Virus record (IMG/VR): IMGVR_UViG_3300026519_000008
Coordinates: 1 to 64,000 of that record
DNA: 64,000 bases
Reading direction: 5' to 3' (one strand)
Source: a virus
Shown: positions 12,561 through 12,999 of the stretch, one piece after another
Numbering within the stretch: the stretch's first letter is position 1
How the letters are laid out: each line of letters opens with the position of its first letter
Notes under the pieces: model-generated
What the model was told of the DNA's origin: nothing
The model's database searches: none
What the model saw: only the letters and a program-made list of their open reading frames with translations
Position numbers and translations under genes: made by a program

Positions 12561-12999
12561 GTCCAGCCGGACGCGCTGGGCGTCGCGTGCCTCGTCGGCG
12601 TCGTCTGAGTCGTCGGCGTTCTTACGTCGTCGCGTGGGGAAAGACTGACTGGCGTCTGCGTGGGGAAAGACGAGGCACGAGTCTTTGTGTGTTAAAGACG
12701 AGCTTGCGAGTCTTCGTTGCTTGACGGACTAACGTGTACGTCGTCTCCCTCCCGCCGCTGAGCTTACTTCGTCGGTTCCTCCCGCTGCTGCTTCTGAAAT
12801 TGATTTCAGGTCGGCGTCGTCTCCACTGCTTGCGTTCTAACACGTCGTCGTTCTGTTTGCTCCCACGATCTAGGACGTCGTCGTTCTTCTTCGCCCCCGC
12901 CTTTTGATATAAAGCGGTCGCGTGGGGAAAGACGAGGCACGAGTCTTTGATTTTGAAAGACGAGGCCCCCGAAGGGGCCCCTATTCGATGCAATTCACC

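Follow-up and report, generated by a model that had tools for sequence, protein, structure and literature searches.

A repeat-built, non-coding border dense in [AGT]C[GT] words adjoins a phage DnaA-box module free of those words on one strand

The DNA immediately to the right of the DnaA-box module of this phage is a non-coding border, built of repeats and lying between the module and the early operon, whose + strand is packed with the same three-letter words that the module lacks. The words are the six covered by DCK (i.e. [AGT]C[GT]), counted here on the + strand. The border (12571–12990, 420 bp; hereafter the flank) adjoins a stretch of about 1.2 kb (hereafter the void) in which no DCK word is found for 1201 nt, and the + strand word content of the flank is the reverse image of that of the void. 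Together, flank and void suggest that some enzyme reads three-letter words on one strand; that a single agent links the two, and which agent it might be, is what we infer from the observations below.

The window analysed comprises the first 64 kb of a linear phage record of 92,373 bp from IMG/VR. The record has no end repeats, is 79% complete, and its contig ends meet within the head module. Practically all genes are encoded on the − strand, and the + strand is therefore the template strand throughout. Genes for the capsid, the portal, PolA, the replicative helicase and the primase are listed in Table 1; further phage genes encode a RecA-like protein, a PD-(D/E)XK nuclease, a dNMP kinase and ThyX, and the match of one glycosyltransferase-like gene falls short of the Pfam curated cut-off. 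A search of the 92-kb record, within its 79% completeness, found no C5 methyltransferase, no N6/N4 methyltransferase and no TGT/DpdA-type enzyme. The phage's own replication origin is likely at 57228–57475, where four 22-bp iterons occur together with an A+T-rich tract and a run of 25 nt that is purely G+C, upstream of the helicase-loader and DnaB genes.

A blastn search against phage records gave no DNA match for the locus, and no homologues were found for the neighbouring gene. Four relatives of 93–100 kb were identified through the capsid protein (identity 60% or less); none of them has a void, DnaA boxes or homologues of the 2.8–26 kb region, and no related genome examined carries the flank/void locus. 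Viral and metagenome contigs scanned for the 16-mer and the tandem 13-mers yielded unrelated DNA only. Relative G001 carries a 114-nt end repeat that probably arose from overlap in the assembly and is therefore uninformative on physical ends. With respect to the host, 33 nt of the left DnaA-box cluster (11410–11442) are identical to a box cluster that closely follows dnaA in a genome from the Capsulimonadales (phylum Armatimonadota; 59% G+C; L115:980–1012). On the basis of this identity the host is probably a member of the Armatimonadota, and the match suggests that the phage copies, and thereby mimics, the boxes of the host oriC.

Across the genome, the + strand carries about 78 DCK sites per kb. 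When the 92-kb genome was surveyed in sliding windows, the maximum fell in the flank for all four window sizes tried, with 19 sites per 65 nt (12569–12633; genome mean 5.05±2.05), 25 per 100 nt (7.78±2.68), 43 per 200 nt (15.6±4.3) and 77 per 420 nt (32.7±7.3). An earlier sequence-only reading of this DNA had noted about 19 sites in the 65 nt right of the void, followed by some 400 bp of word-rich non-coding sequence between transcription units. The count and the extent both agree with ours: the strand-specific density is far above the genome background, the flank runs from the hairpin after gene 13000–13314 to the right DnaA-box cluster, and coding tests (see below) gave no evidence of a real protein that explains its composition. 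Because the flank is CpG-rich, its − strand is also high in DCK (59 sites versus 34.5±6.8), ranking second in the genome and being less extreme than the + strand. The share of C's in a DCK context was 66% in the flank, compared to 25% in coding DNA and 26% in other non-coding DNA (9 kb); the latter, with 80 DCK sites per kb, is at background, and the richness of the flank is therefore not general to spacers. The second-densest 420-nt stretch (15730–16149) is mostly a coding gene and has no adjoining void. We estimate that chance alone would place the densest of some 220 windows beside the void in ∼1% of cases, or in 2 of 25 when non-coding segments alone are counted.

The six words contribute unequally to this density. 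TCG was enriched 5.0-fold, GCG 4.5-fold, ACG 2.8-fold, and TCT and GCT 1.6-fold each, while ACT stood at 0.8-fold, such that the excess derives mainly from CpG words. Observed CpG exceeded expectation in the flank (ratio 1.51) but fell short of it in the genome (0.79) and still further in the void (0.55). The G+C content of the flank is 58%, and A accounts for only 15% of its + strand. The sequence-only reading had described the flank as saturated with exactly the words excluded from the void; the reciprocal pattern is indeed well beyond chance and five of the six words are enriched, but “exactly” does not extend to ACT. A first-order Markov chain trained on the dinucleotides of the flank produced 69±6 DCK sites, so the site count follows from these dinucleotides, and CpG-rich, A-poor repeats may produce the DCK excess as a side effect. 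The mirror image is best seen at lone C's. These were followed by G or T in 0 of 36 cases in the void, in 77 of 81 in the flank and in 7104 in the rest of the genome, and by A in 36, 4 and 5239 cases, respectively; the void has 143 runs of at least two C's and the flank 12. Masking all repeat families covered 278 of the 420 nt. The unique remainder of 142 nt still carried 176 DCK per kb, with 25 of its 25 lone C's followed by G or T, and the bias is therefore region-wide, extending beyond a few repeated words.

The void (about 11371–12570) is without parallel in the window, where the next-longest DCK-free gap measures 88 nt. All six words are at zero on its + strand, CCG, CCT and GCC are enriched 2–3 times, and the exclusion is confined to one strand. 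Its two mutually inverted box clusters hold 10 of the 11 perfect DnaA boxes of the genome and have 47-nt arms that are 85% complementary. The gene that they bracket has a codon log-odds of 0.33, and its sense strand contains 0 sites where back-translation predicts 40±5; a paralogue at 21369–21890 (32% identity, E 1e-10) has 35. The one-strand rule of the void is thus upheld by very strong selection, and from these counts some agent that reads the words must exist. The ends of the void can pair with each other over 94 bp on either strand, from 12563:11382 inwards, to form a panhandle (11382–11496 with 12444–12563), which places the void limits within about 10 nt of the panhandle base. A strong intrinsic terminator (11560–11536) sits inside the void; the leftmost 160 nt therefore lie past the end of the gene's transcription unit, yet they obey the rule. 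The void protein (194 aa) had no homologues among 5.8 billion proteins or in viral contigs, and its predicted structure (pLDDT 64) is a helical bundle with no fold match. Each DnaA-box cluster also folds into a local hairpin with boxes in the stem (e.g. 12495–12538). Short G+C palindromes are abundant between 11373 and 12570, with GGCC at 35 versus 4.2 per kb, GGGCCC at 9.2 versus 0.15 per kb and CCNGG at 27 versus 4.4 per kb.

The flank itself is non-coding and lies between transcription units. Its only long frame, 12622–12993(−), has 123 codons and a codon log-odds of −0.02, compared to 0.15–0.33 in the neighbouring genes, and the period-3 signal of the flank is 1.3 as against 7–10 in genes. 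Furthermore, a 45-nt repeat has two copies at a distance of 262 nt, and since this number is not divisible by 3 they fall in different frames; no PHROG match was obtained for the frame. A search for functional RNAs was equally negative: neither a tRNA nor a tmRNA was found, no Rfam model matched at its gathering score, and no match within the flank had an E value below 4.9. A globally structured RNA was rejected on folding z-scores of only −1.1 and −2.0 (whole region), and a match to the antitermination boxA at 12690–12703(−) was at chance level.

The short repeats of the flank share one orientation (Table 1). Directly past the stop of gene 13000–13314 is a terminator-like hairpin with a weak U-tract, its tail GUCUUUC having only 4 U, and it was not called by a terminator consensus scan. 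A strand-polarised word of 15–16 nt, GTCTTTCCCCACGCGA, has three copies in the flank and 15 in the genome, every one on the − strand; together with a TATATC-like element it forms a module (12905–12933) that recurs at 16077–16105 ahead of a gene. The word TCTTTCCCCACGCGA was found at 15 sites on the − strand only (e.g. 62071–62086, 37203–37218, 16090–16105), some copies lying 9–11 nt before a start codon and others 5–6 nt before a TATATC-like hexamer; its role may be that of a promoter or of an element at the RNA level. The AAAGAC-N9-GTCTTT inverted repeats are weak as RNA hairpins (−3.6 kcal/mol) and are therefore more likely to be DNA sites for dimer binding, i.e. putative operators. The palindrome TGAAATYRATTTCA has 32 copies, about one per 3 kb (e.g. 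3132, 5629, 12395, 12795, 91995), many of them just upstream of a ribosome-binding site and others within genes; its half-site resembles P1 ParB box A. In the phased array, CGT occupies 7 of the 14 in-phase triplets and 11 of the 14 begin with CG. The 11-mer CGGCGTCGTCT and the 9-mer ACGTCGTCG share the core CGTCGTC, all in the same orientation, and outside 11.3–14 kb this core occurs at only five scattered sites, of which the one inspected, at 15735, is coding and specifies an acidic C-terminus.

Table 1. Positions of the flank and void elements and of selected phage genes in the window.
Feature	Position	Strand	Remarks
Capsid	96–1019	−	
Left-edge patch	11355–11373	+	19 nt, 5 DCK sites; abuts void; holds 11-mer copy 1
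11-mer CGGCGTCGTCT, copy 1	about 11362–11373	+	left void edge
DnaA-box clusters of the void	11385–11476 and 12472–12560		mutually inverted; bracket gene 11607–12191(−)
Phased triplet array	12579–12620	+	starts 20 nt after last DnaA box; 42 nt
11-mer CGGCGTCGTCT, copy 2	about 12596–12607	+	exact
9-mer ACGTCGTCG	12624–12632	+	more copies at 12842, 12875, 13898; variant at 12738
Strand-polarised word GTCTTTCCCCACGCGA, copy 3	12630–12645	−	
Strand-polarised word GTCTTTCCCCACGCGA, copy 2	12656–12671	−	
AAAGAC-N9-GTCTTT inverted repeat 2	12666–12686		
AAGAC-N10-GTCTT inverted repeat 3, variant	12694–12714		
14-bp palindrome TGAAATYRATTTCA	12795–12808		one of 32 genome copies; another in void, 12395–12408
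11-mer CGGCGTCGTCT, copy 3	12812–12822	+	exact
Strand-polarised word GTCTTTCCCCACGCGA, copy 1	12918–12933	−	TATATC-like element follows, as at 16105
AAAGAC-N9-GTCTTT inverted repeat 1	12928–12948		within 30-nt exact direct repeat shared with 12658–12687
Terminator-like hairpin	12962–12981	−	directly past stop of gene 13000–13314; −19 kcal/mol, z −3.2
Toprim primase (Toprim_2)	51296–52333	−	
DnaB-like helicase	54063–55370	−	
Portal	59903–62059	−	
PolA	from 62086	−	

An equivalent of the flank had also been proposed at the left edge of the void, along with similar patches elsewhere. The left-edge patch does share an exact 11-mer with the flank, but beyond its 19 nt the density is that of the background (16 DCK sites in 201 nt); the patch overlaps terminator-like hairpins of both strands. 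Among the other patches, 13860–13930 is real, being non-coding with 14 DCK sites in 71 nt, whereas 15090–15170 (10 in 81 nt) is unremarkable, and 57228–57252 is the pure G+C run beside the iteron origin and is dense on both strands; the origin carries one of the ten densest 100-nt patches, again on both strands.

Our preferred reading, held tentatively and at somewhat less than even chances, is that one process, specific to a single strand and reading trinucleotides, ties the two stretches together, the flank being its border, dense in targets, and the void its core, devoid of them. Such a process would recognise three-base words in single-stranded nucleic acid, finding targets in the flank and none in the void; a single-stranded substrate is indicated by the one-strand rule together with the position of the void ends at the base of the 94-bp pairing. 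Evidence for it comes from the genome-wide densest DCK stretch directly adjoining the sole void, and from the reciprocal lone-C pattern, which holds in the unique part of the flank as well. Against it stand the dinucleotide model, which already yields nearly the observed number of sites, the lack of enrichment of ACT, the background density of the left flank outside its short patch, and the dense coding stretch at 15730–16149, which is without a void. We know of no enzyme of DCK specificity, and none was identified in the genome.

Two candidates for the agent may be considered. An endonuclease of RNA or single-stranded DNA, which we judge unlikely though credible, would cut the flank and spare the void, and the module would then survive whole. 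The exact zero over 1.2 kb and the recoded protein are what avoidance of cutting predicts; for a nuclease acting at the RNA level, the 160 nt of void past the strong intrinsic terminator are a contrary observation. A parallel is provided by mRNAs that escape endoribonucleases because they are free of the motif, such as ACA-less or GCU-less transcripts with MazF or MqsR; T4 RegB is a phage RNase. As in those cases, a short word is fully absent from one strand of a recoded gene, and one paralogue of a pair is immune, but the set here comprises six words and the void includes non-transcribed DNA past the terminator. To the best of our knowledge, no enzyme acts on the six-word DCK set and a site-saturated leader has no described counterpart.

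A DnaG-type primase is a rather improbable second candidate. The flank would then be a priming zone beside a DnaA-box module that resembles oriC, with the void unprimable on its + strand. Primases recognise template trinucleotides on one strand (GTC for T7, GTT/GCT for T4, CTG for E. coli), the Toprim primase, the DnaB-like helicase and PolA are all encoded by the phage, and a dense patch is present at the iteron origin; however, priming sites need not be purged to an exact zero, and we know of no primase that uses the D-C-K word set. One-strand priming signals beside origins include ssiA/ssiB of RSF1010-type plasmids and the DnaA-box hairpin “A site” of the ABC primosome. These resemble the present locus in being limited to one strand, in lying beside initiator-binding sites and in the use of three-base words on a single-stranded template, and the DnaA-box clusters here can fold with boxes in the stem. 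They differ in that complete clearance of sites over 1.2 kb is not known from such systems, and priming at this locus is a proposal only. The remaining weight of our preferred reading goes to another agent of the same kind.

If flank and void are indeed linked in this way, a more elaborate scheme, speculative and on balance doubtful, can be drawn in which a primase, a nickase or a single-stranded DNA/RNA endonuclease of phage or host reads DCK on one strand as an instruction to act here and never there. The 1.2-kb DnaA-box module would have been purged of the words, with its gene recoded, and the border packed with them; activity would start or cut at the module edge, and the module would persist as a single-stranded panhandle. 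This would constitute a new kind of cis-acting genome punctuation and a new enzyme specificity. Complete avoidance of a short word is the footprint of an enzyme, and the adjoining saturated zone would tell where that enzyme is meant to act. A real link would offer a sequence-only handle on a three-base, one-strand activity in a phage-host pair of a little-studied phylum (probably Armatimonadota), and a testable model for DnaA-box inverted repeats in lytic phages that have their own origin, a question also raised by T5; without such a link, the flank would be a control region of an ordinary kind, though unusually rich in repeats.

The latter is the main rival, and one that we regard as a serious possibility while thinking it on the whole unlikely. 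It holds that the flank is a regulatory spacer, made up of a terminator and an operator, iteron and promoter array, serving to regulate the void gene or to shield it from the early operon; its richness in DCK would be a by-product of its own repeats and its CpG-rich, A-poor composition, with no functional tie to the rule of the void. About two thirds of the flank (the masked 278 nt) belongs to local or genome-wide motif families, the AAAGAC-N9-GTCTTT repeats resemble dimer operators, the module at 12905–12933 has its second copy ahead of a gene, and the dinucleotide make-up accounts for the site count. Neither the flank nor the DNA upstream of the void gene yielded a consensus sigma-70 promoter, and unusual control elements are therefore expected in the flank. 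What a spacer does not explain is that the unique 142 nt are equally biased, that other regulatory spacers with the same motifs have background DCK, and that the densest window lies beside the sole void, which is improbable by chance.

The flank also has the box-spacer-phased triplet geometry of the DnaA-trio/basal unwinding system of bacterial oriC, in which a DnaA box and a G+C-rich spacer are followed by phased trinucleotides, namely repeats of 3′-[G/A]AT-5′, and then by an A+T-rich region. Its triplets, however, are CGT/CGN and not A-centred 3′-GAT-5′, and with 58% G+C and 15% A it is G+C-rich with no unwinding element; the flank is therefore not a DnaA-trio.

An injection stop, also suggested by the sequence-only reading, or a cleavage site like that of T5 is an improbable alternative. 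In the T5 model, which is itself a proposal in a preprint, membrane-bound DnaA holds DnaA-box inverted repeats during DNA entry and the adjoining repeats are nicked or cut. The inverted repeats of T5 (IRC/IRD and IRD′/IRC′) bracket genes and lie next to the untranslated Repeat Region 3, which has same-direction repeats, palindromes and a strand-specific 7.9% nick; the signal is located at the inner end of the long terminal repeat, about 8% from the entering end. The present locus is of the same architecture, in a lytic phage with its origin elsewhere: genes are enclosed by two DnaA-box clusters in inverted orientation (which belong to the void, not to the flank), and several hundred bp to 1.2 kb of adjoining untranslated DNA hold same-direction repeats and palindromes. 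Since a separate putative iteron origin is present, the DnaA boxes need not serve replication. However, homologues of T5 A1, A2 and dmp were absent (tblastn best E 0.49 to 3), the locus shares no protein or DNA homology with T5 and no DNA similarity with any phage record, its DnaA boxes match an Armatimonadota oriC, and T5 has neither a trinucleotide-class void nor a saturated zone. The locus thus resembles the T5 injection-stop region in architecture and is not a member of its family.

The sequence-only reading had itself proposed a modification barrier, with a loose analogy to base J at trypanosome termination regions, and this we consider quite improbable. With a bulky mark on DCK cytosines, the flank would be densely marked and serve as a roadblock or landing zone, and the void would keep an unmarked template strand so that the first gene could be read. 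The phage does encode a dNMP kinase, ThyX and the glycosyltransferase-like gene, and only the template strand of the void gene is free of sites; the flank, like base J, is placed between transcription units. Yet no sequence-specific DNA methyltransferase or transglycosylase, and hence no writer, was found in this record (79% complete), nor any sign of a modified base; the glycosyltransferase matches are below curated cut-offs; on this template strand, all other genes carry about 80 sites per kb; the void extends past the transcription unit; and a mark on double-stranded DNA would leave the one-strand rule unexplained. ADP-ribosylation of the DarT type was rejected: for DarT1 there is no consensus motif, and TNTC, the motif of DarT2, is present in the void by our reading of the sequence.

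Least credible by a wide measure is a decayed or unrecognised coding sequence, either the frame 12622–12993(−) or the remnant of an acidic-tail gene whose GAC/ACG/CGA codon runs set the composition: an open frame covers the region, two copies spaced by 33 nt differ mostly in third positions of that frame, and CGTCGTC does encode an acidic tail at 15735, but the frame starts with TTG without a ribosome-binding site, and its codon score, period-3 signal, repeat phasing and lack of a PHROG match all argue against translation.

Lastly, several features outside the flank were recorded. The density of [AC]G[ACT] on the sense strand was compared to synonymous shuffles, a test in which a control word class scatters as well, so that the results on selection per gene are suggestive only. 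Three consecutive genes at 39463–44852, including one for a 972-aa ATPase, fell below the shuffles (z −4.1, −4.3 and −6.6), as did the paralogue of the void gene (z −4.5), and in gene 15727–16032 the density was double that normally seen (z +2.7). A gap of 88 nt without DCK (11072–11171), second in length only to the void within the window, spans the promoter and start of gene 10596–11147; here lone C's precede A in 13 cases and G or T in one. Where the G+C content falls sharply from 0.60 to 0.44, immediately to the left of the void, two 44-bp tandem repeats (11243–11331) each carry a leftward promoter-like site, and a third near-consensus promoter lies at 11138–11167.
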